From the IMG/VR virus record IMGVR_UViG_2529292736_000012: a stretch of DNA of 34,544 nt. One strand, written 5' to 3'. The stretch is from a virus (taxonomy: Duplodnaviria; Heunggongvirae; Uroviricota; Caudoviricetes). The notes under the pieces are model-generated. The model did no database searches. It was not told the DNA's origin and saw nothing but the letters and a program-made list of their open reading frames with translations. Both the position numbers and the translations under genes were made by a program. Shown here piece after piece: positions 1 to 25,409 of the stretch (the first letter of the stretch is position 1; each line of letters begins with the position of its first letter).

Positions 1-300
1 ACGTTTGGGCTGGATGTAGTAGCGCAACATGGAACGGCCACCGGTATAACCCATCGCTTTGATTTCCGCCAGGATGACCTCGCCGTTCCAGACGTTCTCA
101 GCCAGACGCATATCTATATAGTCCATGAACGGCTTGAGTTTGGCCATTTTGTGGCGTGTTTTTCTGGCCGGAGGTTCCGGGTATTTCAGGTACCGTCTGA
201 CGGTCCGCTCAGAGCAACCAACCTGAGTGGCAATATCAACAATATACGCACCTTGCTGGCGCATTTGCTTTATCATGTAAAAATCCTCTCTGCTCAGCAT
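1..300 (-). CDS. istA: IS21-family transposase IstA, N-terminal fragment (ORF runs off the window)
   Basis: ATG at 300..298; open frame to position 1; recognised IstA N-terminal HTH sequence. Confidence 0.7.
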   Translation of the reverse strand, partial: MLSREDFYMIKQMRQQGAYIVDIATQVGCSERTVRRYLKYPEPPARKTRHKMAKLKPFMDYIDMRLAENVWNGEVILAEIKAMGYTGGRSMLRYYIQPKR

Positions 301-373
301 GAGTGTTCCCTTTGTGGTGTAGGAACCTTAAGGAAACAACATGTTGGGTGGAGCGGACAATCCAAATGGTGAA
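1..373 (-). mobile_element. IS21-family insertion sequence, partial (one end plus 5' part of istA); continues beyond window start. Exact terminus uncertain, somewhere in ~340-376
   Basis: Minus-strand ORF 300..1 translates to MLSREDFYMIKQMRQQGAYIVDIATQVGCSERTVRRYLKYPEPPARKTRHKMAKLKPFMDYIDMRLAENVWNGEV..., which I recognise as the HTH N-terminus of IS21/IS100-type IstA. Upstream leader contains TTTGGATTGTCCGCTCCACC. Confidence 0.7.
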
Positions 374-1540
374 TTACTGTCTTATATCATTGGCGCTGAC
401 ACCGTTCCTGTAATTCACGCGGAACTGTACAGCAGGGCAGCTCCCCGTATTCATATTGAAATGTAGGATTAATGTTGTTGCGCCACCAATATTTGCGTTA
501 TAGACCCCGCTATTCCAGTTCCAGCCAACAGCTTTATCATTTCCGACAGTGCTTCCTGTTTGCCCTAAAGCAAATGCAGGCTGCTGGTTTTTCGTGTTGT
601 AGTCTCGACGCCAGCCAGGAGCATAAGCATCACCATGATTAATATAAGTGAATTGAGCGTTAGTAATTCCGCCACCGCTGGAAGTGCTCGGGGTGGTTAC
701 ACGGATGGTCATGGCTCCTTTATTACCCATAACCTCAATAACGCAACCTGCAAGATGAATAGTTCCACAGCCAGTATCGGTAATAATTTTATTATTGCCG
801 TATGACCATGAACATTTGCACATCCAGTATGGGTGATTGAATGCCCCTTGAGAATCCAGCCATTCAATCAATTGTGCCGTCGTCCAGTTTCCTGCACCTG
901 TGCTAATAGCACCATGAAAAGAGCGGCAAGCACCTATTGTTTGCGTAAATTTATCTTTGTTTGGAATATCTGCGCCATTCTGGTTTTTCTGTAATGCGCC
1001 AGAAGCCTGATTTACCGTTTCCTGTAAACCGACGTTTTGGATAAACAGCGGCTTATTGGGAATATCTGCTCCGTTCCGGTCTTTTGCCAGACGGGCATTG
1101 GCATTATCCATCGCAATTTTCACCGCTTTTGCGGTGGCTGCCAGCGTTTCACTGGGGCTGTCAGTGGCACTGGTTAGCTGAACGAGTCCTTTTTTGTTCA
1201 GGCTGGCATCATAGATATCCAGATTTTCACGTGCTGTACGCTGTGCTGATGCCCCGGCAGTTTTAATTTCGCTGAGGTTATTTTTTATCAGCAGCGCGTT
1301 ATTGCTCATAATGGCTTTAATGGACAGTGCAAGCTGGTTTAATTTTGTTTTATCCGGTTGAATACCGGCTTCTTCCAGCGTGTTTAATAACTCCGCCTGC
1401 ACAATATTAAACCAGTCCATGCCGGGCCATGTGATAACATTATTCCCGTCACCTTCTGAAAACCAGCGAACGATAGCACTACGCTGGGCGGATACGGGCG
1501 GCATGACGGTTACGCCGCTGTCGTTATCAATATAAAACAT
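374..1540 (-). CDS. S: Mu-type tail fibre protein S (constant N-terminal part plus a short variable C-terminal part)
   Basis: 388-aa ORF; N-terminus MFYIDNDSGVTVMPPVSAQRSAIVRWFSEGDGNNVITWPGMDWF matches Mu S as I recall it; last gene of the tail module; contains gix-like site. Confidence 0.8.
   Translation of the reverse strand: MFYIDNDSGVTVMPPVSAQRSAIVRWFSEGDGNNVITWPGMDWFNIVQAELLNTLEEAGIQPDKTKLNQLALSIKAIMSNNALLIKNNLSEIKTAGASAQRTARENLDIYDASLNKKGLVQLTSATDSPSETLAATAKAVKIAMDNANARLAKDRNGADIPNKPLFIQNVGLQETVNQASGALQKNQNGADIPNKDKFTQTIGACRSFHGAISTGAGNWTTAQLIEWLDSQGAFNHPYWMCKCSWSYGNNKIITDTGCGTIHLAGCVIEVMGNKGAMTIRVTTPSTSSGGGITNAQFTYINHGDAYAPGWRRDYNTKNQQPAFALGQTGSTVGNDKAVGWNWNSGVYNANIGGATTLILHFNMNTGSCPAVQFRVNYRNGVSANDIRQ
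1017..1042. other. gix-like DNA invertase (Gin/Hin family) crossover site inside S
   Basis: TTCCTGTAAACC-GA-CGTTTTGGATAA, two 12-bp half-sites with partial dyad symmetry, closely resembling the Mu gix site as I recall it; lies at the constant/variable junction of S (encodes FIQNVGLQETV). Confidence 0.55.
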
Positions 1541-2082
1541 TAGTTATCTCCGTCATGGTAAACAAATTTATAAATCTGATGCGCGGGTTTATATTTCTCC
1601 AGTAAACATTCCAGCGCACCCGATTCATAAACACGTAACGGCGTCAGAACATTATCCAGCACCGTTGCGTTGCGATAATTTTTAATACCGTAAATATTGA
1701 CCTGCGTAACCCACTGGCCTTCTGTGGAATCCGTCAGCCTGACGGTAAAACCGTACTGCGCAGCCAGCCATTCATAAAAGCGCCGACTCAGATTGCCGGT
1801 CATACGCATTTTATTCGCGGCAGCCCGCTGGCGTTCGGACAGGGTGCCGTTTTCGCTTGTACAGTCCGGCAACCCCAGAAATGATTCCCACTCACCCAGA
1901 TACCAGCGGGATGTGGACGGGAAACGCTCCCGCAGCATTTGTCGCGCATCATCCGCCGCAGTGGCAATCACGTCGCTGATGGCCTGCGCCAGCGCAGATA
2001 ATTTGCTGTCGGGGCTTTTATTCCAGGCAAGCCCTGACGGCAGTAATTGCAGAAAGGCCGTCTGCCAGGGTGTTACAGCCAT
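1540..2082 (-). CDS. R: Mu gp48 (R)-like tail/baseplate protein (P2 gpI-like)
   Basis: 180-aa ORF immediately upstream of S; position in the Mu tail module. Confidence 0.7.
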   Translation of the reverse strand: MAVTPWQTAFLQLLPSGLAWNKSPDSKLSALAQAISDVIATAADDARQMLRERFPSTSRWYLGEWESFLGLPDCTSENGTLSERQRAAANKMRMTGNLSRRFYEWLAAQYGFTVRLTDSTEGQWVTQVNIYGIKNYRNATVLDNVLTPLRVYESGALECLLEKYKPAHQIYKFVYHDGDN

Positions 2083-3155
2083 TCAATTGTCCCCGGTGTT
2101 AACAGTTCCGTATTCTCCGAACGCTGGATCTCTGTCGGGAAACGCACTTCAAAATCATCCAGACCGGTAACACCTGCCACCGCACGGATAATACGGGAGG
2201 GGGCAAGTGCGCCGCCCGGCGTCACCTCATTAAAAAACATGGTATTAATGGCGTGGGTAATAGCCTGTTTCAGTTCGGCTGTCTTCGGTGATATATAAAT
2301 CCGTGGATTTACCGGCTTTGCCTTTGGCGCAAATACAGTGACATTTACACCGTCAGGCTGTCCGACAATCAGACCGGTGATCGGGTCAGTATGACCGGCG
2401 ATATAATCTGCCACGCGTTCCACGTCTGCCGGTTGTGGAAAAATATTGCTCCGGTTATCCATAACAAACGTCACCCCGACTGTGCCACCGCCTTTCCATG
2501 TCGGAAAACACCAGGCACGGGTAACGCCGCTGACTTCACGCGCCCAGCGGACGTAATCAAACTGATTACCGCCGAACGGAGGATACTGGACACGATATTC
2601 CAGCCGTGACAGCAGCTCCGCTGCACTCTCAATATCAGCCCCACCGGAAAACCCTTTTACAGTGATGGCATCGGAAACAACACAGGCAACCGGGGTGATC
2701 AACGTTAAAAGGGTATTCTCACCGGTATTTCCTGCTTCACCGGCAGCCAGTGCGGTAACGGTAATTTCCGTCGTTCCTGCACGGTCAATCACAATGGCAT
2801 CAGCCAGGCTGTAAACCACACCATCAGCACGCTGCCAGCGTGTACCGGCAGGAATGGTGGTCGCTGCCGATGTGGTGACAGTCAGCGGGCCGCTGGCGGC
2901 TGTCGCCTGTTTGCGGCGCACGCCCCAGAACCGGCAGTGCTCCAGCAACTCATCTTCATCTGCTGTCGACGGGATAATCTGCCGTCCAACCCATGAAATA
3001 TGCTCGTGACAACCGGCAGCAAGGCCCGCCTGAGCATAAGCAATGGCACTCAGCGTTTTTTCACGGGCCTGAGGCCAGCTACCCGGCAGGCGCTGTTCAA
3101 TATTCTGTTCTGTACGGGCAATCAGCGATGATAATGTCGGTGGTGAATAAGCCAT
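2073..3155 (-). CDS. W: Mu gp47 (W)-like baseplate protein (P2 gpJ-like)
   Basis: 360-aa ORF; synteny with Mu tail/baseplate genes. Confidence 0.75.
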   Translation of the reverse strand: MAYSPPTLSSLIARTEQNIEQRLPGSWPQAREKTLSAIAYAQAGLAAGCHEHISWVGRQIIPSTADEDELLEHCRFWGVRRKQATAASGPLTVTTSAATTIPAGTRWQRADGVVYSLADAIVIDRAGTTEITVTALAAGEAGNTGENTLLTLITPVACVVSDAITVKGFSGGADIESAAELLSRLEYRVQYPPFGGNQFDYVRWAREVSGVTRAWCFPTWKGGGTVGVTFVMDNRSNIFPQPADVERVADYIAGHTDPITGLIVGQPDGVNVTVFAPKAKPVNPRIYISPKTAELKQAITHAINTMFFNEVTPGGALAPSRIIRAVAGVTGLDDFEVRFPTEIQRSENTELLTPGTIEWL

Positions 3156-3593
3156 TTAAACCCCGTTAAATGCTGCTTTAAACTCATAAGGAATAACGGA
3201 ACCATCCGGTAATGTCAGTGCAATGTAGAGGTATAACCAGCCCTGATGTAACTGTTCCGCTCTGACGTTAATCGCACTTACCCGGCCCGCTGTTTTCAGC
3301 CATTCCAGCGCCTCTTCGGCATACCCTCTGGCGCGTTCCAGCGTATCCGGCGTGGTTTTTTCACGTGACAACAGCCACAACCGCGAACCGATGGGGCGGT
3401 CGCGGTAACTGTCCCCCCACCATCCACGGCGATCATCTGAACCATCCGGCAGCGTGTCAGAATCCAGCGCGCGCCGGTCGGTAAACAGGGAGATTGTCAC
3501 ATCGGTTGTCAGGCTGTCGTCGGTCAGCATATCGATGCCATCCTGTGCAATATCGCCGCGTCCGTTCGTCCAGATAATGGCTAAATCGGTCAT
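3156..3593 (-). CDS. V: Mu gp46 (V)-like baseplate protein
   Basis: 145-aa ORF; synteny. Confidence 0.7.
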   Translation of the reverse strand: MTDLAIIWTNGRGDIAQDGIDMLTDDSLTTDVTISLFTDRRALDSDTLPDGSDDRRGWWGDSYRDRPIGSRLWLLSREKTTPDTLERARGYAEEALEWLKTAGRVSAINVRAEQLHQGWLYLYIALTLPDGSVIPYEFKAAFNGV

Positions 3594-4183
3594 TGCATCG
3601 GCCCCGTGGTTCCGCCGCTGTCGCCGCGGTGGATATGCTTATCCGTCGATTTGCCATTGATGATGGCATCCGGGGCAGTAATATTGCTGTCGAACTGGCT
3701 TTTACCTTTAACGCCCAGACCTTTCTGGATCTCAACGTCGCCGGTAAACGTGGTTCTGGGTGTATCAACGGTCATGCTTTCATCAGCGTAAATCTCAACC
3801 GTTTTACAGGTAATGATGCAGCGCCCGTCCTTTGTCAGCCTGATACGATGCCCCTCGTGGTGGTAAATGCCTGCATCACCCGGTTCAAGATTTGTCGGGC
3901 GGTAGCGGCGGTCTTCCACCACAACGGCAATCCCCTGATCACGTTGTGCACCCACACAGGCAATCAGCGCCTCTGCGCCCGGCAGAGGAACGCTGAAATG
4001 CCCGTAATTTTGCAGGCGCTCCACTTCATCAGATTCCTCATCATCCAGCAGACCGACCTGCAGGTTCTGAACTTTTCGCCCGTCGTTAATCACGTTAACA
4101 ACGGCACGCGCAAGCATCAGACGCACACGACGCATCAGCGGTGTCAGCAGGCGGTTCATGGCGGAATCATTTACTCTTTCCAC
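3590..4183 (-). CDS. Q: Mu gp45 (Q)-like baseplate hub/spike protein
   Basis: 197-aa ORF; synteny. Confidence 0.7.
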   Translation of the reverse strand: MERVNDSAMNRLLTPLMRRVRLMLARAVVNVINDGRKVQNLQVGLLDDEESDEVERLQNYGHFSVPLPGAEALIACVGAQRDQGIAVVVEDRRYRPTNLEPGDAGIYHHEGHRIRLTKDGRCIITCKTVEIYADESMTVDTPRTTFTGDVEIQKGLGVKGKSQFDSNITAPDAIINGKSTDKHIHRGDSGGTTGPMQ

Positions 4184-5302
4184 GGCGGCGTTTTCTCCGG
4201 GTGTCTGCGATAATAATCTTCAACCAGCGCATCAATACCGCCGTTACTGTCGCCGCCTTTCCTGTTTTTACGGTCGCTTTCAACCGGCACCAGAAAGCCT
4301 TCGCGTGGTGCAAGGCTGACGCGGGTTTTCAGCCCGTCCTGGTCATTCAGTATCAGGGTGACTTTGCTGACCAGTAATTCTGTGGTTTTGATGGCATATT
4401 TCGAGGCATCAATAGTGACCAGCAGGTTCGGCATCCAGAGTTGCCCGTCCTTGCGTGTCCATCCGTCAATTTCTGCCTCAAAGATGATGGATTTTGCCAG
4501 TCTGCGGCGTTGCTCACGCAGGGCGCGGGCCTGTGCATCCTTCGCCGTAATTTTGCTGTCGGCAATGATGATCATCGGTCTGTAACGGGTCACATCACTG
4601 TCAGTGGCGGTCCCTTTCCGGGAGACGATACTTTTCGCATCAATATCATCACCCTCAGCACCGTTTGCGCGGGCATACCCCTTGACGGTGTATTCGCTGA
4701 ACCGGTCGCGGAAGTCTTCCTCAAAATCCAGTGTCAGCAGGTTTTCTCCGAGAACCAGCTCATCAGTGGCTGTGCTGGCAGCCCGGCTGAATACCAGCTC
4801 TCCGGCGGCATTGCTGGTCATCAGTACACCGCGTGCGCGGGAGGCACGCACCAGCGCCTCATAAACGGTTTCTGAATGGTCCAGCGTGAAGCCGGGAAAA
4901 ACTGCCGAACTTTCCTTATCGGAAAGCTCCCAGCGAACGGTAACGCCATAAGGAGCGCACAGGTCACGCGCAATCTGCTCCAGTGTGCGGTTTTTCCACT
5001 GTCCGCCACTGTAAACGGCAGCACAGTCAATCAGGTCAGCCGTTTTGTCACGTCCGGCGACAGTGATTTTCATACTGTCAGCGGTCATCTGGCGTCGCCG
5101 TGAATCGATATAACCGGTGCAGATAATCTGCCCCCCGATTTCCAGCGTGAACGCCTTCCCCGGTGCCAGCCCGGATAAATCCGTACCCGGTGGCACGTTC
5201 ACCCCCAGCTCAAAATATCCGGCTACGGATTCAATCGAGCGGGTGACAGAGACTGACGTCCAGCCGGTAAAAAGCCTGCCATCCGTTCGCAGCGTGACGG
5301 TA
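4171..5302 (-). pseudogene. P: Baseplate gene P (Mu gp44) interrupted by IS insertion; first 3 codons (ATG AGT AA-) lie on the far side of the IS at 6616..6623
   Basis: 343-aa ORF from an internal GTG, but the frame stays open up to the IS junction at 5302. Removing 5303..6615 restores ATG-AGT-AAT-ACC-GTC... (MSNTVTLRTDGRLF...), a 379-aa protein whose ATG overlaps the stop of N (ATGAGTAA). Confidence 0.85.
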
Positions 5303-5327
5303 TGAACCGCCCCGGGAATCCTGGAGA
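5303..5327 (+). repeat. IS left terminal inverted repeat
   Basis: TGAACCGCCCCGGGAATCCTGGAGA; matches the right end in 22 of 24 positions. Confidence 0.85.
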
Positions 5328-5356
5328 CTAAACTCCCTGAGAAAGAGGTAAACAGG

Positions 5357-5683
5357 ATGACTAAAAATACTCGTTTTTCCCCCGAAGTCCGTCAGAGGGC
5401 GATTCGTATGGTTCTGGAAAGTCAGGGCGAATATGACTCACAGTGGGCGGCAATTTGTTCCATTGCCCCAAAGATTGACTGTACACCGGAGACTCTGCGT
5501 GTCTGGGTACGCCAGCATGAGCGGGATACCGGAGGCGGTGATGGCGGGCTCACCACCGCTGAACGTCAGCGTCTGAAAGAGCTGGAACGTGAAAATCGTG
5601 AACTGCGCCGCAGTAACGATATCCTTCGCCAGGCTTCCGCTTATTTTGCGAAGGCGGAGTTCGACCGCCTCTGGAAAAAGTGA
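5357..5683 (+). CDS. IS3-family transposase OrfA (HTH / leucine-zipper part)
   Basis: 108-aa [33 protein letters not shown]...AEFDRLWKK, recognised as IS629-type OrfA. Confidence 0.9.
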
Positions 5684-6570
5684 TGCCACTGCTGGATAAG
5701 CTGCGTAAGCTGTACGGGGTCGGACCGGTATGCAGTGAACTACATATTGCCCCGTCAACGTATTACCACTGTCAGCAACAGCGACATCATCCTGATAAAC
5801 GCAGTGCCCGTGCGCAGCGCGATGACTGGCTGAAGAAAGAGATACTGCGCGTATACGATGGGAATCATCAGGTATACGGTGTGCGTAAAGTCTGGCGTCA
5901 GTTGTTACGGGAAGGAATCAGGGTAGCCAGATGTACAGTGGCGCGCCTCATGGCGGTTATGGGACTTGCCGGTGTTCTCCGGGGTAAAAAGGTCCGCACT
6001 ACCGTCAGCCGGAAAGCCGTTGCCGCAGGCGACCGCGTAAACCGTCAGTTTGTGGCAGAACGTCCTGACCAGTTGTGGGTGGCTGATTTTACTTACGTCA
6101 GCACATGGCAGGGGGTCGTCTATGTGGCGTTCATCATTGATGTGTTTGCCGGATACATCGTGGGGTGGCGGGTCTCATCGTCTATGGAAACGACATTCGT
6201 GCTGGATGCTCTGGAGCAGGCGTTATGGGCCCGTCGACCGTCCGGCACAGTCCATCACAGTGATAAAGGTTCTCAGTATGTATCGCTGGCCTACACACAG
6301 CGGCTTAAGGAAGCCGGATTACTGGCATCAACAGGAAGTACTGGTGACTCGTATGACAACGCGATGGCGGAGAGCATCAATGGCCTTTACAAAGCGGAGG
6401 TAATACACCGTAAGAGCTGGAAAAACCGGACAGAAGTGGAGCTGGCCACACTCACGTGGGTGGACTGGTATAACAATCGACGATTGCTGGAAAGGCTGGG
6501 CCATATCCCACCGGCAGAAGCAGAAAAAGCTTATTATGCTTCCATCGGAAACGATGATCTGGCAGCCTGA
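5680..6570 (+). CDS. IS3-family transposase OrfB (DDE catalytic part), expressed as an OrfAB fusion by -1 frameshift
   Basis: 296-aa ORF in the -1 frame relative to orfA, overlapping at GAAAAAG (5674..5680); integrase-core-like sequence (…HHSDKGSQY…YDNAMAES…). Confidence 0.9.
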
Positions 6571-6588
6571 GTTCACAGATAAAACACT

Positions 6589-6612
6589 CTCCAGGAAACC
6601 CGGGGCGGTTCA
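6589..6612 (-). repeat. IS right terminal inverted repeat
   Basis: Reverse complement reads TGAACCGCCCCGGGTTTCCTGGAG. Confidence 0.85.
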
Positions 6613-6615
6613 GTA

Positions 6616-8103
6616 TTACTCATTAATCACCTCAATACTGACACCACCGGGAACAAACAACGGGTTGCTGATACCGTTCCTGCGGGCCAGCCGTTGCCAG
6701 TTCCGGCTGTTTCCTGTGTAACGGTACAGGGCCACCATTGCAGGCATCGTCTCCGGCAGGCGGTGCGTTTCACTGCCCGCCAGTTGCAGCCCGCGTTTTT
6801 CCAGGTCGGCAACAACCAGCAGACGCAGTTGCGTAAGCTGAACACTGTCTGTCGAAAAGCCCTGCTCAGATGCCGTCAGAATGACGGTATCCAGTGCAGC
6901 CCCCAGCATGGCGGCTGTTTTTCCGATATCGGACACACTTTCAAATACCGGGGGCGTGGCTGTACCACTGTCTGAAAAGGATACCTGTGAAAAACCGCTG
7001 TCCGGGGTTATGGCAGTTAACTGTAACTGTCCCTGTGTGACGGTAGCAGATGTGCTGCTGGCCCCGCTGGCTGTGCCGGTTGTGGTGGACGGAGCATCCA
7101 GTACAGGTGCACGGGCGGCATTATCCATCCGGCGACTGAAATCCAGTGCCGCAGTCAGTGCCTGGCTGGCAGCTTCTGCCCGGTATGTCTGCGCCGCTGC
7201 CAGCATGACGTAGTTCAGTGTGGCAATATTTTTTTCTGCAACCGGACTGTTGTACGAGGTTGTGATTGTCCCCTGTCTGCCTGCGGTGGCGGCATGGCGA
7301 CGTTCGAATCGCTGCGCCAGACGGTTCCATGTGGAAAATGCTGTCCGGGTATCGCATAACGATGAAACGCCGGATAACGCCCCCATCAGCGAGGAGGCCA
7401 GCATGGCAGGCTGGTTAATCAGGCTGGTCACAGAGCCTTTCATCGCAGAAAGTGACCCCATCAGGCCGCTGACAGTCTGGGTGATCCCCAGATTATCCAC
7501 CGCATCACAGATATCATCGATGACACCGGTTACGGCATCCATTACGGCTGTTGCCGCCGCTGTGCCATCTTTTACGGTCTGCCAGACAGAGGACAGCGTA
7601 TCTCCCAGAGAACCGGTTACAGCAACAGCCTGTGCCGGTACGGCTGCACTGGTGTCTGTTTCTGCGTCCGGGGCAGTATCCTGCAACGACGGATAAACGG
7701 TAACGGTGAACGCGTAATAATTCAGTTCATCCGCTTTAGTGCGGCATTCCCATGAATCCACCATGACGTCCACAGTGCCGAAATCAGGATGTACCAGCTC
7801 ACCGCTACCCGGAGCATCAAGAGCATCCATCAGCGCACCCGCTTCATCTCTGGCTGTTTCTGCGTTGCTGTTCAGAATGCAGGCGCTGAATGTACGGGAG
7901 CGAAGCTTTTTCCCCAGGTCATTGACGCCGCCGGTATCACGTAACGGGTACTCGCGTTTAACCAGACGACGTCCGCCAGCCTGTTTTTGCTCCTCGATGA
8001 CGAGAAACGGCACGTTACGGAACGTGCCTTTGCCGGTTGTTTTCTTACCACCGCTGATTTTATCCCGGACAGCATTAACGGCATTTAAAGCATCTTCAAA
8101 CAT
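6616..8103 (-). CDS. N: Mu gp43 (N) DNA circularisation protein
   Basis: 495-aa ORF between tape measure and P; synteny. Confidence 0.8.
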
Positions 8104-8107
8104 GGTT

Positions 8108-10276
8108 TTACCAGCCTGTAATGTAGTTATCGCCCGCGTAAATATTCAGCCCCATACCGTCCTCGGTGACACGGGAACTGGCCAGTCGTAACCCCTCGCC
8201 AAGTTCGACGCGCAGCGAGGCTTCCGCATTCACTTTTTGTTCCTGCGGTTCCTTATCCGGGGCCGTCCATTTCTGATACAGGTCGGTTACAAAACCGCCC
8301 AGATACTCCCCGGCGACACTGCCCAGCGTGGCACCGGCAACCGTACCCAGCGGTCCGGCAAGGCTGCCAACGGCACCGCCGAGCCATGCACCGGCTGTAC
8401 TGCCAATTGCGCCTGCTTTTTCATGGGTTGACGCCTGCTCATCCATCAGGACGGGGGCAAGCTGGAGTGCCCCCATTACCGGGCCACCCAGACGTGACAA
8501 CGCACGACCGGCACCTTTCCCCATCCAGCCCAGCGCCCCGGCACCTTTTGTCATAACCCGACCGATCGCACTGCCTGCAAGTTTGTTTCCGATACCGGAA
8601 AACCACCCGCCAACAGCACGCCCGGCATCAGCCAGCTTTCCGACCGTTCCCGTAACCAGTTGCCCGGCAGCACTGCCTGCAAGCCTGCTCAGAAGACCGG
8701 ATTTACCGGGTAAAGGTAATGGTGCAGGCCGTGCCGTTACCGGTACGCCGGGTGGGGGTAATGCCAGTACAGGGCGTGGTGCAGGTAATGCCAGCGGCTG
8801 TGGCCCCGACAACAGCAACGGCTGTCGGGGTAACAGGGGCGTCATGCCTCTGCCTTTCCGGGTGCGGCCACCACGGCCACCGCTTCCGTAACCGCCGAAC
8901 CCGTGAGGCCAGTTAGTGACAAACACACGCTGAATGCCGATGCCTTGCAACAGCGCCTCAGACGTCATGGCATCCGGGACCGGCAGACCTGCCTGCCCAC
9001 GTTTGCGGTTTCGCATCCAGCGCCACATACGACGCCCGGTTTTAAACGGATAACTGGCAACCTGCCATGAGGGTTTTGCCACGGCCCAGCCTGCTCTCAG
9101 GGCTTTATTGGCAAGCCAGACAGACACCAGAACAGCAGCCAGTTTTTTCAGGCTGACAATATTCTGGTCAACCCATGCCAGCGCATCCTTACCCGGTTTC
9201 AGCCAGCGCCATAATTCCTGCGCCGCGATTTTTACCGTTCTGAACGTGGTCAGAAATTTCTGACCAATGTTTTCTGCCAGTGCGTCAAGTTCCCCGGATT
9301 TATCCGCCATGTCGTGCCAGTTAAGCACCCGGCGCATCTCGTTCTTGATTTCTTCAAAGGGGCCGCTGTTTGCCACCTTCGTGCGAAACTCAAGCAGGTT
9401 GCCCTCCATCTGGGCCATCATCCCGTCCCAGGAGTTCATGGCAGCCGCCTGTGCGCCTTTTGACTGCTCCAGCAGGGTCCGGAATACCGTCAGGATGGAT
9501 TTCAGGCCCAGCTTGCCTTTTTCACCCAACTTGCGGATTTTTTTCTCATCCTCACCCGTTGCATCTGCCAGCACCTTGTAAACGTTGATGCCATAGCCGG
9601 TCAGCAGGTTGGCATCCGCCGCGGTGATTTGCTGGCGGGCAAACATCTGTTTGAACTGTAACGAAGCCCCCTGTGCAGTGGGTAAATCCCAGCCGTGCAT
9701 CGCGCCCTGGTTCTGTAGCATGGTGATGAACTGTTTTACCTGTTCATCATTCATACCAAACGCCGTTGATGTGCGGATTTCCTGCAGAACGCCGCCCAGC
9801 CCCCAGGTGGTTTCTTTTGCGTTCTGTTTCGCCCAGGCCATCATGGCCTGCGCTCTGGCCTTATCGCCGTGATACAGCGAGTTCATGGCGATGATCTGCT
9901 GCTCACGCTGGGCGGCTGCACCAATAAACAGTTTATTGGCGGTGTAACCCACGCCAGCGATACCCAGCGCCCCGGCTGACAGCATTCGGAATGTACGGGT
10001 TGACAGAGAACCCATTCTGTCAATGGCACCAGAAACGCGCACAACCTCCATACGCAGGGCACGAAGGGAACTTTGTCCGCTACGGGACAGGGCGTTTATC
10101 TGGTTCGAATACTGGCGGGAACGCCGGGAAAGATTGCCATTAAGATCAATAATGACAGACGCCTTTAAGCGTTTCCCGGTCATAGAGATTTCCTGATTTA
10201 ACGGTGATATTGAGAGAGGGTTTTCGCCTGCTGGCAGTGCCGGAAAAAGCGGGACAGCGGGAGAGACAAGGCCCAT
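8108..10276 (-). CDS. Tail tape measure protein (Mu gp42)
   Basis: 722-aa ORF with Gly/Ala-rich repeats and a long helical region, downstream of sheath/tube genes. Confidence 0.8.
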
Positions 10277-10327
10277 TCCGGGCCACTTTTCAGAATAACG
10301 CCAATCGCTGTCGCCGCTTTCTCAATA

Positions 10328-10762
10328 TCATTCCGGCACCGCAGCCACTCGCCCCCGTTCTTGCGTCAGCGATGCCGCCACAGCCATGTCGTGCATCTCT
10401 GTAGCCAGCGACAGACGCTGGAAGTCATCAACAGACAGCTTGCGCATCAGCGCCAGCGATAACGGGCCTTTGATGCAACCCACGCTGGCAATCTGTCGGC
10501 GCAGCATTTCCAGTCCCATCCGGGACGGGGAACTGACCAGCACCGGGCCTTCCTTGCTCATTACCAGCTTTTCAGCAGCCGCCTGGGCATCAATCAGATC
10601 GCCTGCGGTCAGTTCACGTAGTGTCACGTCATACTGCATTTCAGTCTCGTCACCGGTGCCGAACGGCAGGCCGTCTTTCAGTTTCAGACCACCGGACTGA
10701 AGCTCAGCCACAATGCTGTCATGCAGTTCCTGTGCTTCAGGACTTAAATTCATTTCGTCCAT
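10328..10762 (-). CDS. Y: Mu gp41 (Y)-like tail assembly protein
   Basis: 144-aa acidic ORF between tube and tape measure genes. Confidence 0.65.
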   Translation of the reverse strand: MDEMNLSPEAQELHDSIVAELQSGGLKLKDGLPFGTGDETEMQYDVTLRELTAGDLIDAQAAAEKLVMSKEGPVLVSSPSRMGLEMLRRQIASVGCIKGPLSLALMRKLSVDDFQRLSLATEMHDMAVAASLTQERGRVAAVPE

Positions 10763-10771
10763 TGTTTCCCC

Positions 10772-11128
10772 TTATGCAATGCGTTTGCTTTGTTTTGCCA
10801 TCAGTACCAGCGAAATTTCGCCGCCGTCGTTTTTCGGTTCATCTGCCTGCCAGGCATTCGCCATCATCCAGGTTTCACCGGTGTCTGCCTGAAACTCTGC
10901 CGTGATGTTTTCCCAACCGATGATTTCATCCAGACCGATATCACCACCGCCCGGAATTTTGCATTCCAGCTTTGCGGCACGTGGTTTACCTTTCCAGCCA
11001 TAAACCCGCGAGCCGGTCACTTCTTCACGGGTGATGCCGGAAGGCGTGAAGGAGGCGCCTTCCATCGTTTCAAGCTCCATGCCATTGACACGGATGAACG
11101 CCACCCCCTGACGCTGATTTCCAGCCAT
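10772..11128 (-). CDS. M: Tail tube protein (Mu M, gp40)
   Basis: 118-aa ORF immediately after the sheath gene. Confidence 0.8.
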   Translation of the reverse strand: MAGNQRQGVAFIRVNGMELETMEGASFTPSGITREEVTGSRVYGWKGKPRAAKLECKIPGGGDIGLDEIIGWENITAEFQADTGETWMMANAWQADEPKNDGGEISLVLMAKQSKRIA

Positions 11129-11137
11129 AAATGCTCC

Positions 11138-12625
11138 TTACAGAATGAACTGAACTTGTGCCGCGAAAATGCGGAACTGGTTAATCAGATTCGGGCCGCA
11201 CAGCACATCAAGGCGGTCTTTGTCGTCCTTGTTACGTGCCACATACAGCTCCTCTTTGAACGTGTCGAAATCCTCGACCAGTCCGGCGTTTTCCCATTCT
11301 TCAAACAGTGCCAGCAGCTCCGTTTTGATCACGGATGGCGTCACCACGGCCTGACCGGTGGCAAAGCGGGTGCCATCACTTGCCAGTTTGTAGTTCGGGA
11401 ATTTCTGCGTGATGCGGGTTCGCAGCGAATAACGCAGATAACTCAGCGTGGCGATGGTATTCACGTTCAGATAAGACGGATCACTGTCACCGTACTTGTT
11501 TGTGCGGTACATCGTGATCATGCGTTCAATCTGCATTTCACCACCATCATTCACGTTAAACGTGGAGATGCCGTCAAACAGCAGCGCATTACGTTCTGAC
11601 CAGGTGAAACGATCCCCCACCGCAGGCGGCATTCTTCCGGGCAACGTCAGCGTCTGGAGAGGACGCGCCGGGTCGATGGAAAGCGCCTGGCTGGCAACGG
11701 CACACAGTGTGGCGGCGTACAGATATGACGGTTCCGGTGCACCGGCAATCCCCATACAGGAGATCAGATGATCATTACGACTGACACCAAACGTGGAAAT
11801 ATCCCCATACGTGCCGGACAGCACTGTCACGGCAAAGCCATCAGCCTGATTGACCGGTCCCCAGCGTTCCTGCAATTCAGTGCGTAACAGATTCAGGTTC
11901 GGTTCATCGGTATAGGGCATCACAATATATTTGTATTGCAGATCGCCCATTCCCGCGATACTTGCGCTGATATCCGGGTTGCTGTTTTTCCCGGATGCGG
12001 CTTTGAATGCCGTGATAATCCCGTAAGGGGTGGTTTCACCCGCGTAATAGTTCCAGCGCACGTCCACGGCAGATAATGCACCTGTAAATTTTGCACTCAG
12101 AACCACATCTGCATGGGTGTCATCATCCCCGCTGTCTGCGCGAACTTCTGCCGTCACCGGTAAATCCGGCTGACCTTTGATTCGGGCAACCAGCAGGTCA
12201 GCCAGCGCCGCTCCCGTTGCACCTGCTGCGACAGATACCGCCAGTCGCTGACCGGCAATGTAAGTCACAAGCGAGCCGTTTTCGCCTGCTGTTCCTGACA
12301 GTGAAATTTCACCGACAGCAGCATTACCGGTGCCGTTCCCCTGCGGAATACACCACAGCTCCGCCACGCGGTTAGCGTTCAGGAATGCATCTGCCATCAG
12401 TGCCAGCATGGAACCCTGACCAAACGCCGCACTGGCCTGTGAGCCGGAACGGATACGGACAGGCACGTCTGGTGCCGCACTGGCTTTACTTCCGCTTTGC
12501 CCGAACATCAGCACGCGCTGACGGGGTGCCGGTGTTCCGCTGACGGCATTACTGTTATCAAATTCGATATACGTCAGAGGAACACGAACATCTGACGGGA
12601 TCGCGTTAAATGAAATATCGCTCAT
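11138..12625 (-). CDS. L: Contractile tail sheath protein (Mu L, gp39)
   Basis: 495-aa ORF; size and position match Mu L. Confidence 0.85.
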
Positions 12626-12828
12626 TTCGATTTACTCCGTTTTTTCGGCGCAGCGTCGGTATCATCCGCCGTGTTTTCGGTGCTCCCGACTTCAACCACA
12701 TCACCGGCTGCAAGGCGACGTATCCAGAAACTGTTACGGGGCTTTTCTTCTCCCTCAGACGCCAGTAATTTCATCGTGAGCGGGTCACGGATGGCTTTTC
12801 CCGCTGCGGGTTTAATTTTCAGCATCAT
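12622..12828 (-). CDS. Small hypothetical protein (Mu gp38-like)
   Basis: 68-aa ORF with 4-nt overlap to L; synteny. Confidence 0.55.
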
Positions 12829-13360
12829 GATCCTTTTCCTGATTCACATTGATATGTGCGGCAAATTCCGGGGTTTCGTCCGGGAATTTCCAGGTCTGCC
12901 AGTGACGCTCGTAATCATCCAGCGAATCCATGTCCACCACAGACGGCAGCGGGGTAGTGCCACTGAACAGAACGCCGTAAAGCACCACACCGGCATTGAT
13001 ACGGTTGTCGTCACAAAGATTTCTGACCTGCGTCAGTCTCATCCCGGTGGTCGGGCCAAACGTCTGACCGTTAACACCGGCAATCAGTCGCTCCACAATC
13101 TGATAAATACCGGGCCGGTTTACCGGTTCCCCGTTCAGCAACTCCGCCACGACAAAAAATGCCCAGCGACTTTCAACTTCCCGACGCGTACGCCCCTCAC
13201 CACAGCCCATCCATGCCAGAAATACCGATGGCGGGGCCAGAAAGAGACGGTGCACATCCTCGTTAGTCCATGTGCCGGTAAGGGGTTCCACCTGCCGCAG
13301 GGTTGCCCCAAACAACTCACGAACGCGCGCCAGCAGTGCGGCTTCGGTTTCTTCCAGCAT
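12812..13360 (-). CDS. K: Mu gp37 (K)-like head-tail joining/tail completion protein
   Basis: 182-aa ORF; synteny. Confidence 0.65.
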   Translation of the reverse strand: MLEETEAALLARVRELFGATLRQVEPLTGTWTNEDVHRLFLAPPSVFLAWMGCGEGRTRREVESRWAFFVVAELLNGEPVNRPGIYQIVERLIAGVNGQTFGPTTGMRLTQVRNLCDDNRINAGVVLYGVLFSGTTPLPSVVDMDSLDDYERHWQTWKFPDETPEFAAHINVNQEKDHDAEN

Positions 13361-13785
13361 CAGATAAACCCCTTCTGTTTTCGTGAAAAAACAGGTGGAT
13401 CAGACTGAACCTGCACAAGATCCTCTCCCTCCGGCGAGGCTGCCGTTCTGCTTTCCACGCCGGGATCTGTTTTGCCATCGCGCACCTGTTCCAGCCAGCG
13501 CACCGTGTCCCTGTAAGTTGCGGTGATCTGCTCGGTGGGTTGTGATTCATTCAGATAAAACCAGGCCACCACGCAACACTGCCGTTTCAGCAGTGAGGGG
13601 ACGACGGTAAGCGGCAGAACAAAGCGCGCGGCGAGATAGCCATCAATAAAGGCCGAAGCATCTGCCAGTGCCTGTTCTGCCACGGCATCATCCGGCTGCC
13701 CGTCCGCTGTTTTAGGGCGGGTGAGAATATCCAGCCGCGTACGTGTATAGCGGGCGCACAGGTCATTTACCGTCGCGTAATTCAT
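13360..13785 (-). CDS. J: Mu gp36 (J)-like head completion protein
   Basis: 141-aa ORF; synteny. Confidence 0.65.
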   Translation of the reverse strand: MNYATVNDLCARYTRTRLDILTRPKTADGQPDDAVAEQALADASAFIDGYLAARFVLPLTVVPSLLKRQCCVVAWFYLNESQPTEQITATYRDTVRWLEQVRDGKTDPGVESRTAASPEGEDLVQVQSDPPVFSRKQKGFI

Positions 13786-14192
13786 GCATCCGCCTCAGCC
13801 AGCGCCGCTTTGATTTGCGCACTGCTCACCGGTTCCCCCAGCGCCGCACTGACGGCTTTCACTTTGGGTTCTCCCCCTGCGGTAAAGTGCTCCGGGTTTG
13901 CCTTATCCAGACCGGCAACGGTCGCACGGATACGGGTATTCAGATCGCCCACACCCAGAACGTCCAGCCCCCCAGCCTCAGCGAGCGTTTCTGCTGACGA
14001 TGCAGATACCACAGACAGCACGCTGTCGGCACGAATGATCGCCAGTTGTTCTTCGGTGACTTCCACGGTGTTTTCGCCACGCGTAAAGGCGATTCCGGCG
14101 CGGCGGTAGACCGGACGAAGGCATTTAATAATCGCCGTGCAAGTGATGCGAGAAGTGTCCAGCCGTTGTGAATTAAGCGAAGTGCCTGACAT
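13782..14192 (-). CDS. Mu gp35-like protein (possible head decoration/assembly)
   Basis: 136-aa ORF downstream of the major capsid gene. Confidence 0.6.
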   Translation of the reverse strand: MSGTSLNSQRLDTSRITCTAIIKCLRPVYRRAGIAFTRGENTVEVTEEQLAIIRADSVLSVVSASSAETLAEAGGLDVLGVGDLNTRIRATVAGLDKANPEHFTAGGEPKVKAVSAALGEPVSSAQIKAALAEADA

Positions 14193-14226
14193 AACACATG
14201 CTCCTCCTTTTCCTTTAAATCAGGTT

Positions 14227-14250
14227 AAAAGGCGGTCTGAACCGCCTTTT
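14227..14250 (-). terminator. Perfect hairpin (candidate intrinsic terminator/attenuator) just downstream of the major capsid gene
   Basis: AAAAGGCGGT-CTGA-ACCGCCTTTT, a 10-bp perfect inverted repeat with 4-nt loop, A/T tracts on both sides. Confidence 0.5.
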
Positions 14251-14258
14251 AATGACGG

Positions 14259-15176
14259 TTACAGGTAGTCAGCGACAACCAGTTGCAGCTTGCCCTTCAT
14301 CTCGTTGGAGACGGTGGTATTGCCATCCGCGAACAGTTCACGGTTAAGCAGTTGCTCTGCGGCTTTTTCCAGCCCGACCGGTACAACGATATGCGTCGGC
14401 TTCAGGCCCAGCTTCTTACCGCCATCACCTTCAAAAGATCGCATCAGTTGCCAGCCCTTCCAGAGGTTATCCAGCGTCAGATCGCCTTTTACCGCGACAG
14501 CCATCTGCCAGAAGCCGTAACCGGCAGCACGGCGGGCGCTGGCACCAAACAGGAACTCGTTATCCATAAAAACGTGGTCGTCATCGATACGGGTACGTGC
14601 GACCAGCTCCGGTTTGCGGCGCTCCTGGAAAATCAGCGGTTTGACTGCGCGGGAGCAGTCCAGCAGATAGAACGGCAGACCGCTGAAGCTGTCCTGCTCA
14701 ACGATGTTGGAGGTATTAACCGCGCTGCCCGTGCCGTCCACATTCGGATATACCGGATGCTCCTTGTCGAAGAAGTTCTGACCGTCATAGCACGGCTGGG
14801 TAAAGCCATCTTTCAGAAGTTTAAAAATCAGCTCATCCGGCTGAACTGCCGCAGAACGGCCCATCTCCTGAAAAATCGGCGCATAAATACCCAGATTGTC
14901 ATCCTCGAAGTCATCACGGGAAATACCCACGGTGCCTTCAAACGTTTTATTGGCGATGGAGTAGCCATGCGCTTCCATTTGCTGAATGGTTCGCTTACCC
15001 ACCCATTCTTTCAGGGTCGGGAATTTACCCAGCCAGCCATAGGTATTACTGCGGGTGGAAGAGTTCACCACCATTGCAATTTTGCTGTACTGCGACGGGG
15101 CGTCTTCAAGACCGCCCTGAAAATCCTTACGCCAGGAGGTCATCAGGGCTTTAATGGATGCCGGGGTGACAATCAT
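14259..15176 (-). CDS. T: Major capsid protein (Mu T, gp34)
   Basis: 305-aa ORF after the protease/scaffold gene; followed by a hairpin. Confidence 0.85.
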   Translation of the reverse strand: MIVTPASIKALMTSWRKDFQGGLEDAPSQYSKIAMVVNSSTRSNTYGWLGKFPTLKEWVGKRTIQQMEAHGYSIANKTFEGTVGISRDDFEDDNLGIYAPIFQEMGRSAAVQPDELIFKLLKDGFTQPCYDGQNFFDKEHPVYPNVDGTGSAVNTSNIVEQDSFSGLPFYLLDCSRAVKPLIFQERRKPELVARTRIDDDHVFMDNEFLFGASARRAAGYGFWQMAVAVKGDLTLDNLWKGWQLMRSFEGDGGKKLGLKPTHIVVPVGLEKAAEQLLNRELFADGNTTVSNEMKGKLQLVVADYL

Positions 15177-16258
15177 TTTTCTTGTTCCTGTTTCATTTTC
15201 AGATACTCAGCCTCAGTAATGCCGAGCGCCTTCACTGCTGCCTGTTCATCAGCAGACAGCACCGCCACCGCCGGTTTTTCCTGCGACGGGATTTTCGCTG
15301 TGGTGGTCTGCATGGCAGATAACGCAGCGATGGGCTGTTTTTTCTCAAGCTGTGCCGACAGTGCCGCCACGCCAATCTGACCGCCAAGCTGTTCCAGATA
15401 GGTACGTTCGCTTTTGAAAATGCGGCCTTCCTGTTCCGCCTTGTCCAGAACGGCGCTCAGGCTGGCTGTGGCGCTTTGTGCAGTCGCCTGTGCCAGTTCA
15501 TCACGCAGGGCGTTGTAGCTTTCCACAGGGACGTATTTCGTCAGGTCAACGGCGGCTTTCTGTGCCTTTTCCAGTTCGGCGGATAACGACGCCACTTTTC
15601 CGGCATCTGTTTCGAGCGCATCAAGCGCACTCAGGGCCGCGCTGGCCTGTTCATCGGTGATGTCTGCATTTTCGGGGACAGTCACCCCAAGACGCGCAAG
15701 CAGCTTGCGCAGCGTTTCATTCATGGGTTTGTTCTCCTGTTGAAGGATGTCGGGAAGGTCTGCCGCCAGTGCGGTCAGCTTTTTCATGCCGGTGGCACCG
15801 GGGTCATTGGTCAGCGCAGCAAGGCGGATTTGCAGCACCGCACCGGTGGCGGTGTCATACGGAAAAACCGCAGAGAGATAACCAAATTCGCCGTCATCGA
15901 TGCGCTGCTGGGCCGCCGCCGTCCAGCGTGGGTGGATAAATAACCCTTCACCTTCACGCCACTGCATTTCATCGGCGTTAAACCAGCCAGCCGCGACGAG
16001 TTGTTCCGGGGGTAATCCTTTGTCCTTACGTAGCTGGTTATGCTCGTAATCAATCAGCACGTCCTGGTTGAGCGCGCGAATGCCTTCAACCAGACGCCCG
16101 GCAATCTCACCGTCGATGAACCACCCCTGACCACCTGTCACATCAAACGGGCGACCATCACGGGCACTGAAATGACCGGCAGGCAATAGCTGGCACCAGC
16201 CGTCATCGTCAATGGACAGCGCATTCAGTGCGGCAATGCCAATCGCGTGTTTTTTCAT
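15173..16258 (-). CDS. I: Head maturation protease / scaffold protein (Mu I, gp32; Z from internal start)
   Basis: 361-aa ORF with N-terminal protease-like part and Ala/Glu/Gln-rich helical C-terminus typical of a scaffold. Confidence 0.85.
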   Translation of the reverse strand: MKKHAIGIAALNALSIDDDGWCQLLPAGHFSARDGRPFDVTGGQGWFIDGEIAGRLVEGIRALNQDVLIDYEHNQLRKDKGLPPEQLVAAGWFNADEMQWREGEGLFIHPRWTAAAQQRIDDGEFGYLSAVFPYDTATGAVLQIRLAALTNDPGATGMKKLTALAADLPDILQQENKPMNETLRKLLARLGVTVPENADITDEQASAALSALDALETDAGKVASLSAELEKAQKAAVDLTKYVPVESYNALRDELAQATAQSATASLSAVLDKAEQEGRIFKSERTYLEQLGGQIGVAALSAQLEKKQPIAALSAMQTTTAKIPSQEKPAVAVLSADEQAAVKALGITEAEYLKMKQEQEK

Positions 16259-16454
16259 GTCCTGCTGCTCATCATGGTTTGTGAGCAGTCAGTTTGCGGG
16301 AGGTGCGGGAAAATCTGGGGTTATGCTATTTGAGTAATGGAGAAAGAAAGTGAAAGGAAGATAAAACGGGATTCATACACCGTTAAATACCGGTTTAAAA
16401 ATCCCGTGGCGCGTTTTAAAAAATCTGTGCGGCTGATTTCATGTCTGATTCCGT
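16259..16454 (-). promoter_or_regulatory. G-I intergenic region: candidate late promoter for I and candidate Mu central strong gyrase site
   Basis: 196-bp non-coding gap in an otherwise tightly packed operon; motif TTCCCGCACCT shared with the region upstream of lys; inverted repeat ACGGGATT...AATCCCGT; located near the middle of the prophage. Confidence 0.5.
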
Positions 16455-16925
16455 TTATTGCCTCAGAGCGGCGCTGACGCGTTTTCTGATGGCATCAAAA
16501 ATTTCCTGTTCCCCGGTCTTATCCAGCCCCATATAAGGACGCGCAGGAACGCCTGCCGGGCGGGGTGCCATATCGGGTGTACCGCCCCACTGATGAATGG
16601 CAGCATAAATTTTTGGCGAACCAATCAGGGCATAATCCTGTCCATAATCGGTGGTAATGCTGCGTGCCAGATCGCCATGCAGGGTAAGAATACTGCCCGG
16701 AACAAAACCATGATCCTGACGCCATGCCTGCCACGAATCGCTCCACGCTTCCCAGCCTTTCCCTGTATCCGGGTCTGCCTGCCGTTCAAATGCCTGTTCC
16801 GTGGATGACAGCAGCGCCGCAGCCATCACACGGGGAATGGCGCGGTCACGTGTAACGGTTCCCAGTTCATCCAGTGCAAGCTGAATACGTCGCACATCCA
16901 CGGCAACGTTCATATCAAGACTCAC
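16455..16925 (-). CDS. G: Mu G (gp31) head protein
   Basis: 156-aa ORF; synteny. Confidence 0.75.
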   Translation of the reverse strand: MSLDMNVAVDVRRIQLALDELGTVTRDRAIPRVMAAALLSSTEQAFERQADPDTGKGWEAWSDSWQAWRQDHGFVPGSILTLHGDLARSITTDYGQDYALIGSPKIYAAIHQWGGTPDMAPRPAGVPARPYMGLDKTGEQEIFDAIRKRVSAALRQ

Positions 16926-18277
16926 TTATTCACCTCCACATGCCCCTCCAGTACGTCAATCATCCCGTCAGCAATCGCGGCTTCAAGCGACTGTGCAGAT
17001 ACGCGGCTGATACTGACCAGCACATCCGCACGGTCATTCTGTCTGCCGACTGTCTGTGATGTTCTGACCACAATCCGGGCCATGCCGTCACGGGTTGCCA
17101 CAACATACAGCAACTGGTGGTTCTCCCTGTCCCACAATACCGCCTGTGGTTTTGCCATCAGCGACGGCAGACGCTGTAAATCCTCCGGTTTCAGGGCGGC
17201 ATCAGAAGTGGTCGCCAGACTTTTCCCGTTCATCACAAGCAGACGGGCTGGCATATTCCCGGTGCGCTGATATACGGCCTCCGCCACGGATCCCGTCATA
17301 AAACCCAGCGCACGGACCTCATGTCCTGCCCGGCGTGATTTCGCCAGACGTTTAAGCCAGAGGGAAAAAGCAAGCTGACGCTCCCGGCTGTTATTCAGCG
17401 TCTGAACAACCTGCTCACGCAGCTGCGCGTCACGAACTTCCACCAGTTTTCGAATCAGTGCCTGATCCGTACCAAATGCCGCCGAACCGGGGTTATATGA
17501 CCAGCCCACATCTGGCGTCATTTTTACCCGACCGTTGTCAAACGTGGTTGACGATGTGCGGAAAATCTCTCCGGTGCTTTCATCCGTACCGGCATCCACT
17601 TCGCGGGTATTCATGAATGACGCACCATAACTGACCTGTAGCCCCAGTTCTTTCATGCGGGCCGCAGACAGCGCCCGGACGCGACAGCGGCAGTTCCAGC
17701 CATTGGGCGGGTAATGCGTCTGCCAGAAAATGTCGTCATACTGGAAAACCATATTGTGCAGCCGCGCATGTTCCGGGCGTGTTCTGCCATCCATAACGGC
17801 AACGTACTGCCAGTACGGGTACAAATCGGCGGTATTCATCATCTGCGCATAACGTCCTGCCCCATACGCCGTACGGGTATTGACGTTATAAATGGTTGCC
17901 AGACGACGCGGACTGCCCAGTTCGATTTCCTTCGCGTTTCCCTCTGCATCCACGATGATTTGTTTTCCCCACCATCCGAGTTTTTGCAGCCGGGGGGCCA
18001 GTGTGCGGGTAAATTCCTCACGGGTGATGCCTTCACTGACAGCCCGCTCCACTTCCTCACGGATTGTGGTCAGGACATCCATCCGGGTGGCTTTGGCAAC
18101 GGTAAAGGCGCGGGCGTGCGCGTCTGCCAGTTGTTCGTACCAGTTCCAGGTGATGTTGTAGCCTTTGGCGCGGAAATACGCGACAGCCTCCTTTGGCGGG
18201 AGGCGTGCGGCATACGCCAGATCAATGGTCTGCTGCGGCATCCAGACGCCCCCATATATCGGCAACAAAAATGGCAC
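16922..18277 (-). CDS. F: Mu F (gp30) virion morphogenesis protein
   Basis: 451-aa ORF directly after portal gene. Confidence 0.8.
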   Translation of the reverse strand: MPFLLPIYGGVWMPQQTIDLAYAARLPPKEAVAYFRAKGYNITWNWYEQLADAHARAFTVAKATRMDVLTTIREEVERAVSEGITREEFTRTLAPRLQKLGWWGKQIIVDAEGNAKEIELGSPRRLATIYNVNTRTAYGAGRYAQMMNTADLYPYWQYVAVMDGRTRPEHARLHNMVFQYDDIFWQTHYPPNGWNCRCRVRALSAARMKELGLQVSYGASFMNTREVDAGTDESTGEIFRTSSTTFDNGRVKMTPDVGWSYNPGSAAFGTDQALIRKLVEVRDAQLREQVVQTLNNSRERQLAFSLWLKRLAKSRRAGHEVRALGFMTGSVAEAVYQRTGNMPARLLVMNGKSLATTSDAALKPEDLQRLPSLMAKPQAVLWDRENHQLLYVVATRDGMARIVVRTSQTVGRQNDRADVLVSISRVSAQSLEAAIADGMIDVLEGHVEVNK

Positions 18278-21415: not shown

Positions 21416-21511
21416 GGGTGAAAAATCCGGTGTAAAACGTTACCGGCGAATCCAGGAACAACCGATCACCTGACCTGCCGTCGCCGGGCATCCGCCATTT
21501 TCATCTCCTCA

Positions 21512-21679
21512 GGACAACATCCTTAGTTGCTTTATGGTGGTATGCCATGAATTGCCTGAAGCCATGGCCTGAACAAGCACATCCCGAATCTGGTGTATCA
21601 ACCGGACATCAGACAATGTTGCAATCCTGAAGGCTTTTTTATGGGCACTGATTAGCTGTGCTTTGTAATTATTTTTCAT
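21512..21679 (-). CDS. Hypothetical small protein (56 aa) between gp27-like gene and large terminase
   Basis: ATG 11 nt after the gp27 stop; MKNNYKAQLISAHKKAFRIATLSDVRLIHQIRDVLVQAMASGNSWHTTIKQLRMLS; weak RBS, so uncertain. Confidence 0.3.
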
Positions 21680-21689
21680 AACGTAACGC

Positions 21690-22280: not shown

Positions 22281-22567
22281 GCACGTGGACGCGGACGCTT
22301 GACACCGGCAACGCGGGCGCGGCCTTCCGCCACATCCTGACCTCGGGAGGTCAGCGTTACGACATAAAAGCCGCGCAGGTTTTCCACGGTGACCAGTTGC
22401 TGCTCTGCCAGCCAGTCAATCTGGCCGCGAACCACATCGCGGGAAACGTTGTGTCCGTATGCATCCAGACAGTCCTGAAGGATGGATTCGTTGGCTTCGT
22501 TATTGCAGTCCATCAGGGAACGCAGGATGACCAGACGACGGTCTTCAGTCAGAATATCGTTAATCAT
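22277..22567 (-). CDS. Mu gp26-like hypothetical protein
   Basis: 96-aa ORF with 4-nt overlaps to neighbours. Confidence 0.55.
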   Translation of the reverse strand: MINDILTEDRRLVILRSLMDCNNEANESILQDCLDAYGHNVSRDVVRGQIDWLAEQQLVTVENLRGFYVVTLTSRGQDVAEGRARVAGVKRPRPRA

Positions 22568-24617: not shown

Positions 24618-24629
24618 ATTTTCCCCCGG

Positions 24630-24749: not shown

Positions 24750-24758
24750 GGTGCCCCT

Positions 24759-25402: not shown

Positions 25403-25409
25403 TTACTGT

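Follow-up and report, generated by a model that had tools for sequence, protein, structure and literature searches.

A Mu-type tail-fibre gene S with a gix-type crossover site, broken by an insertion sequence at a draft contig end

The tail-fibre gene at one end of a 34,544 nt segment of viral DNA (IMG/VR record IMGVR_UViG_2529292736_000012; this whole segment, the first 34.5 kb of draft contig AIHJ01000030.1, is referred to here as the window) has a crossover site of the kind that bounds invertible segments, together with a short variable region, a duplicated motif and no visible partner site. The initial annotation read these as a mosaic or rearranged host-range cassette, possibly frozen in one orientation, and the question is whether the locus is in fact a departure from the Mu-type switch. 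We conclude with high confidence that the gene is S of a Mu-like prophage close to Shigella phage SfMu, in which the constant part Sc is joined to the variable part Sv', and which is truncated by an insertion sequence (IS) at the end of a draft contig. Everything visible at the locus belongs to families that are already known, namely the Mu G segment, the S' fibre and ISEc62. The features are:

1..401, minus strand: left end of an IS21-family element (ISEc62-like), running off the window and the contig end (terminal inverted repeat, istA)
374..400, minus strand: IS-encoded end of the S open reading frame, VSANDIRQ plus stop (alignment break, IS terminus)
374..1540, minus strand: truncated tail-fibre gene S in the S' (G(-)-like) configuration (ORF list, protein alignments)
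402..1030, minus strand: 5' two-thirds of an Sv'-type variable segment, aa 171-380 (alignments, domain search)
957..988, unstranded: direct repeat copy 2, on the variable side and 32 codons from copy 1, encoding QNGADIPNKDK (repeat search, alignments)
1019..1044, unstranded: gix-type crossover site TTCCTGTAAACC-GA-CGTTTTGGATAA (match to Mu gix)
1032..1540, minus strand: constant part Sc, up to the crossover dinucleotide (alignment with Mu)
1053..1084, unstranded: direct repeat copy 1, on the Sc side, encoding RNGADIPNKPL (repeat search)
1082..1204, minus strand: Pfam Phage_fiber_2 tail-fibre repeat, aa 113-153, inside Sc (E = 6.8e-18)

The crossover site and the S' module

The 26-mer at 1019..1044 (TTCCTGTAAACCGACGTTTTGGATAA) has a single mismatch (25/26) to the Mu gix sequence TTCCTGTAAACCGAGGTTTTGGATAA, which is the exact sequence of both Mu sites, and these bracket the annotated G-segment boundaries; the number of Mu gix matches expected by chance in the window is zero, as judged from shuffled sequence. 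The gix-like site of the initial annotation is real, although it was placed 2 nt away, at 1017..1042. It has the gix architecture of two 12-bp dyad half-sites around a 2-bp core, with the central GA at 1031-1032 conserved, and the variant base is a C at 1033 (G in Mu) that is in the Sc-side half-site and adjoins the central GA. Read in the coding sense (TTATCCAAAACG-TC-GGTTTACAGGAA) the site encodes FIQNVGLQE, residues 166-174 of the product, and it sits in frame at the Sc/Sv junction, where identity to Mu Sc ends and beyond which Sv and Sv' diverge. This is where a Gin-type site had been proposed, at the boundary of the constant and variable parts of a Mu-type S. Sites of similar design are present in P1 (cix) and e14 (pix), which share the 12-2-12 dyad architecture and the position in the tail-fibre gene, but have a TT/AA core whereas that of the window site is GA/TC. 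By our own count, 6 positions separate P1 cixR from the window site; against the Mu gix consensus, cixL and pix have 7-8 differences, and cix and pix overall have 5-8. Assignment to the cix or pix type is ruled out by the core and by the 6-8 mismatches of these sites, and the alignment to gix, cix and pix sites places the window site with gix.

Another one-base variant is seen in the gin-proximal gix of many Mu-like prophages, which has TTATCTAAAACC where Mu has TTATCCAAAACC (L001 3528..3553, L006 8072..8097, L012 8314..8339, L013 7775..7800 and L015 490..515). Its presence in many prophages shows that natural gix half-sites tolerate single changes.

The 388-residue S product consists of 380 phage-encoded residues followed by 8 residues and a stop codon that are IS-encoded. 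The first 174 residues are identical to Mu Sc at 173 positions, and the sole difference, L170V, arises because of the one-base gix variant. Residues 175-380 are identical to Mu S' at 175 of 206 positions (85%; the Mu S' reference protein was made by in silico inversion of the Mu G segment, NC_000929) and to S of an intact E. coli RM8082 prophage at 201 of 206 (98%), whereas the variable part has only ~25% identity to Mu Sv. Over residues 1-380 as a whole, 374 of 380 positions are identical to the intact 486-aa S of RM8082. Mu S, Mu S' and SfMu were included in the multiple alignment of the window protein. A tblastn search with the intact relative matches features annotated as Mu S', D108 S' and P1 'Sv prime', and an alignment of the RM8082 protein with PDB 8ju3 ('Tail fiber protein S,Tail fiber protein S'', 488 aa) runs the full length of both. 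The window has the same module as Mu S' (PDB 8ju3) and P1 Sv prime, with both the second NGADIP motif and the cysteine-rich WMCK...CG stretch present, but is missing the last ~106 residues. Relative to Mu S', it belongs to a sub-allele that lacks two residues and diverges over aa 205-225; RM8082 has this sub-allele as well, and P2 H has the 2-residue deletion and part of the divergent stretch. The alignments, the tblastn matches and 8ju3 together identify the segment as S', and the 'different receptor-binding module' of the initial annotation is thus the alternative module already well known from the Mu/P1 host-range switch.

The locus shares with the Mu G segment (NC_000929) the near-identical Sc, the crossover site with the same GA/TC core in the same in-frame Sc/Sv position, and the upstream gene order (gp43-48, S). 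It departs from the Mu reference in its S' configuration, in the break of Sv' by an IS, in the one base changed beside the crossover core, and in that the distal site and gin are past the contig end. The window is colinear with SfMu (KP010268) 33014..1457 at 95-98% identity, and SfMu ORF49 has both the same Sc-Sv' orientation and the identical Sc-side gix variant. As an intact phage that forms plaques, SfMu has the whole G segment together with gin, whereas the window copy bears two IS insertions and differs in its immunity region.

Several observations concern the remainder of the prophage. Part of the early region (29837..30345) and the immunity end (33364..34544) diverge from SfMu, and the rest is 95-98% identical; an ORF at 33954..34544 (plus strand, 196 aa) is in the position of the Mu c repressor, and the divergence of the immunity end indicates that this prophage is of a different immunity type. 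Two segments, 24749..25117 and 21416..21693, have no SfMu counterpart. An ORF (24759..25172, minus strand) at the first of these encodes a small, very hydrophobic protein and is possibly a moron gene, and the second overlaps an ORF at 21509..21874 (minus strand). There is a 1.3-kb IS3-family insertion at 5304..6612, with overlapping ORFs at 5357..5683 and 5680..6570 (plus strand), located at the overlap of the gp43 stop and the gp44 start in the Mu-like baseplate operon; the sole Rfam match in the window is the ALIL frameshift pseudoknot of IS3-family elements at 5638..5754. We take this element to resemble IS629/IS1203. It is absent from the sister assembly (L003), and is therefore more recent than the IS21-family insertion in S.

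An insertion sequence after codon 380

The alignment of the window protein with its 486-aa RM8082 relative breaks off at residue 380, with no similarity beyond, and at the DNA level similarity to prophages and to SfMu ends at window position 402; among complete E. coli genomes, the best matching places begin at 402 or 408. An IS terminal inverted repeat (TGTCAGCGCCAA), with a TGT start, begins at 401 and reads downward, and the end of the S reading frame (...NYRNGVSANDIRQ) has its final VSANDIRQ and stop codon read from this repeat. The istA start codon is at 300..298. The N-terminal HTH of istA is found in the window, and both the HTH and the rve (DDE) domain are found in the sister contig, where the 984 nt of the element that are available are 99.8-100% identical to ISEc62 (RefSeq annotation). 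Three independent ISEc62 copies with unrelated flanks all begin TGTCAGCGCC (TGTCAGCGCCAATG...) and all end ...CTTGGCGTTGACA; the full element has a length of 2125 bp and carries both istA and istB, and the other copies have target duplications of 4-5 bp. The element at the window edge shares with ISEc62, a member of the IS21 family, its terminal repeat and an istA with HTH and rve, but only the first 401 nt are included, istB and the right end being past the contig end.

Because the break in homology coincides with the IS terminus, the short S is explained by an IS insertion after codon 380, and not by a native short variant. The initial annotation correctly counted about 214 codons after the site (aa 175-388), but the shortness that it took as a property of the variable region is a product of the insertion, and the C-terminal domain ending ...CPAVQFRVNYRNGVSANDIRQ is not a native C-terminus, as homology to S' runs to residue 380 and gives way to the IS. 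A native short S, or a mosaic with a different and compact receptor-binding module, might be suspected from the length of the ORF (388 aa, compared with 504 for Mu S and 488 for Mu S') and from aa 205-225, which are noticeably unlike Mu S'. However, the variable part is colinear with S' as far as residue 380 and 98% identical to RM8082 there, the last eight codons and the stop are inside the ISEc62 terminal repeat, and the intact relative has 106 further residues that are near-identical to Mu S'. With the break falling exactly at the IS terminus we consider this explanation refuted, and grant it almost no probability. The locus is rearranged in that the IS insertion is a real disruption, but it is not a mosaic with a foreign module, since the variable part is the S' of Mu/P1, and a match to a known S variant of standard architecture is found up to the exact IS terminus.

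It is very improbable that the S'-IS junction is an assembly artefact, such as a chimeric contig end. A mis-join would be in keeping with the position of the junction at a draft contig end and with the multi-copy nature of the IS. Nonetheless, the identical 388-aa ORF is present on two draft contigs (AIHJ01000030.1 and AIHH01000046.1), both of which end inside the IS, and the same junction is thus seen in two separate assemblies, one of which reaches 946 nt into the element. The break is also exactly at the terminal base of the IS, as is expected of transposition and unlike a mis-join. No complete E. coli genome spans the S'-IS junction, and an exact scan of IMG/VR yields no contig that has it. 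The predicted right junction (...CTTGGCGTTGACA, a 4-5-nt duplicate of (A)ACGG, then CGGTATATTTTATCG...) likewise has no matches in an exact IMG/VR scan.

In the favored explanation, an ISEc62-like IS21-family element of 2.1 kb inserted into Sv' after codon 380. The fibre thereby lost ~106 C-terminal residues, among them the remainder of a gp37_C-like distal domain and the conserved C-terminal tip, and the downstream chaperone gene U' was separated from S. The Pfam gp37_C domain is at aa 326-419 in RM8082 S and is undetected in the window protein, and the distal domain (the gp37_C-like region and the conserved ...INGTWYN tip) is incomplete in window S, which is cut at residue 380, partway through the gp37_C-like region. 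With its distal domain missing and U' apart from S, the truncated S' fibre is presumably non-functional in the present orientation. We assume a simple insertion at S', for which the target-site duplication and the 3' remnant of S' would lie past the readable DNA; alternatively, an IS-mediated deletion or rearrangement may have taken gin along with what remained of the G segment.

The position of the contig end also bears on the missing partner site. All of the intact relatives examined (RM8082, E. coli W, Mu and SfMu) have the layout S-U-U'-S'v-invertase-com-mom, with a second gix in inverted orientation ~3.03-3.06 kb from the first. In the window, the variable side of gix extends for only 1018 nt before the contig ends. 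Of the two Sv/U cassettes that are present in the relatives only the 5' part of one (Sv') is visible, and because the contig ends inside the IS, U', U, Sv, the second gix and gin are all out of view. The gin gene is beside the segment in RM8082, E. coli W, Mu and SfMu, and its expected position is past the contig end, outside the window. The absence of a partner site was correctly reported, as no second gix is found in the 34.5 kb of the window when up to 5 mismatches are allowed, but it is uninformative with a contig that ends inside an IS. We note as a caution that a 'short' variable region and a 'missing' partner at a window edge can be the combination of an IS insertion and an assembly break, and are not in themselves a sign of a novel cassette layout.

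The duplicated NGADIPNK motif and P2 H

The two stretches that flank the crossover site (961..984 and 1057..1080) are, as initially annotated, direct imperfect repeats that match at 20 of 24 positions and both encode NGADIPNK. A repeat search extends them to 957..988 and 1053..1084, giving 32-nt copies with 81% identity and a 96-nt spacing, and by our own estimate the chance expectation of such a direct repeat inside gene S is ~0.002. The motifs are at aa 156 and aa 188 of the window protein. The second NGADIP motif is kept in Mu S' (as NGADIPGK), SfMu, RM8082 and P2 H, and Mu Sv opens with a degenerate counterpart (KNGDTLSGGLTF). The duplication had been taken as a sign of rearrangement, but it is conserved in S'.

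A further comparison is with P2 H, in which an S'-type distal module is joined at the NGADIP motif and is fixed without any inversion system. Aligned with window S (aa 150..200), P2 H (L025, aa 330..350) matches to either side of a gap that takes out precisely the 32 residues separating the motifs, and there is no gix-like site in P2 H at up to 9 mismatches. The conservation of the motif in S' and the P2 H alignment show that the repeat is a conserved 32-residue shaft unit, one copy of which carries the crossover site. The NGADIP repeat marks a module junction that tail-fibre evolution has used repeatedly, and is not a scar of local rearrangement. Recombination between the two NGADIP motifs would yield a fixed fibre gene like P2 H, and the motifs thus delimit a 32-codon gix-bearing unit that separates the invertible S' genes from the fixed P2 H.

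The variant gix and inversion of the cassette

The switch is evidently active in at least one intact relative. Two complete assemblies of E. coli W (L002, NC_017635.1; L009, NC_017664.1) have the G segment in opposite orientations, the 3058 bp between the site centers (record 294493..297550) being an exact reverse complement with identical flanks, and this is direct evidence of an active switch in E. coli W.

For the window prophage, a frozen cassette is possible but doubtful, and could have come about in either of two ways: the partner site and gin were lost in the IS event, or recombination is disabled by the base change beside the crossover dinucleotide. On the second of these, the C at 1033 adjoins the central GA and is the same change as in the Sc-proximal gix of SfMu, whose authors described a 1-bp mutation beside the crossover bases, proposed that it possibly reduces or abolishes inversion, and found no host-range difference between lysates obtained by induction and by infection (PMC4406740). 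Furthermore, SfMu, the window and the sister strain are all Sc-Sv'. A truly frozen relative is also known, an SfMu-like prophage (L018, IMGVR_UViG_2562617057_000010; 1313..4875) with the variant gix in the Sc-Sv orientation, in which a ~1.2 kb deletion has left only the last ~40 nt of gin and has taken out both the distal gix and the 5' portion of Sv'.

There are several points on the other side. The variant base is in the Sc half-site and remains with Sc in either orientation, the central dinucleotide itself is unaltered, and the DNA past the IS, where a partner site and gin would be, lies outside the window and both of the draft contigs. An IMG/VR scan for the variant 26-mer identified eight loci, all with the same Sc side and with upstream regions 97-99.6% identical to SfMu; the variant base is absent from Yersinia Mu-like phages, which are therefore uninformative here. 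The variant site is joined to Sv'-type DNA in two of the eight loci (L015 and L021) and to Sv-type DNA in five (L014, L017, L018, L019 and L020), and in the eighth (L016) the variable side is unreadable. With both the Sv and Sv' modules beside it, the variant is not linked to a single orientation on an evolutionary time scale. This pattern, which is drawn from sequence, is suggestive and not proof: it speaks against the variant as a strict block to inversion, although recombination between prophages could mimic it.

One of these loci, a metagenomic contig (L017, IMGVR_UViG_3300023289_000038), has two inverted copies of an Sc end with a gix-like site, at 3770..3795 and 6448..6473, ~2.65 kb apart. 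One of the sites is degenerate (TTTACGAGAA), with P1-like sequence after it. The arrangement may represent a multi-cassette, shufflon-like organization or an assembly artefact.

If the insertion in S' was simple and gin is intact, then on the basis of established Mu biology the enlarged segment of ~5.2 kb may still be invertible: with the distal half and gin surviving past the IS, Gin acting with host FIS could invert it and restore Sc-Sv-U. We regard as rather unlikely the fuller form of this proposal, in which survival of the distal G half and gin leaves a lopsided switch that is semi-permanent if the G-to-C change slows inversion.

The biological weight of the locus itself is small, as it amounts to a decayed version of a textbook switch, and the prophage around it has at least two IS insertions. 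Of wider relevance is that the variant gix is found joined to both Sv and Sv', which argues against the published suggestion that the variant abolishes inversion. Were the lopsided switch real, one orientation would present a dead, IS-truncated S' and the other an intact Sc-Sv-U fibre, so that the IS insertion would be conditionally silent, and the G-to-C change beside the core, in common with SfMu, might slow inversion and render the state semi-permanent.
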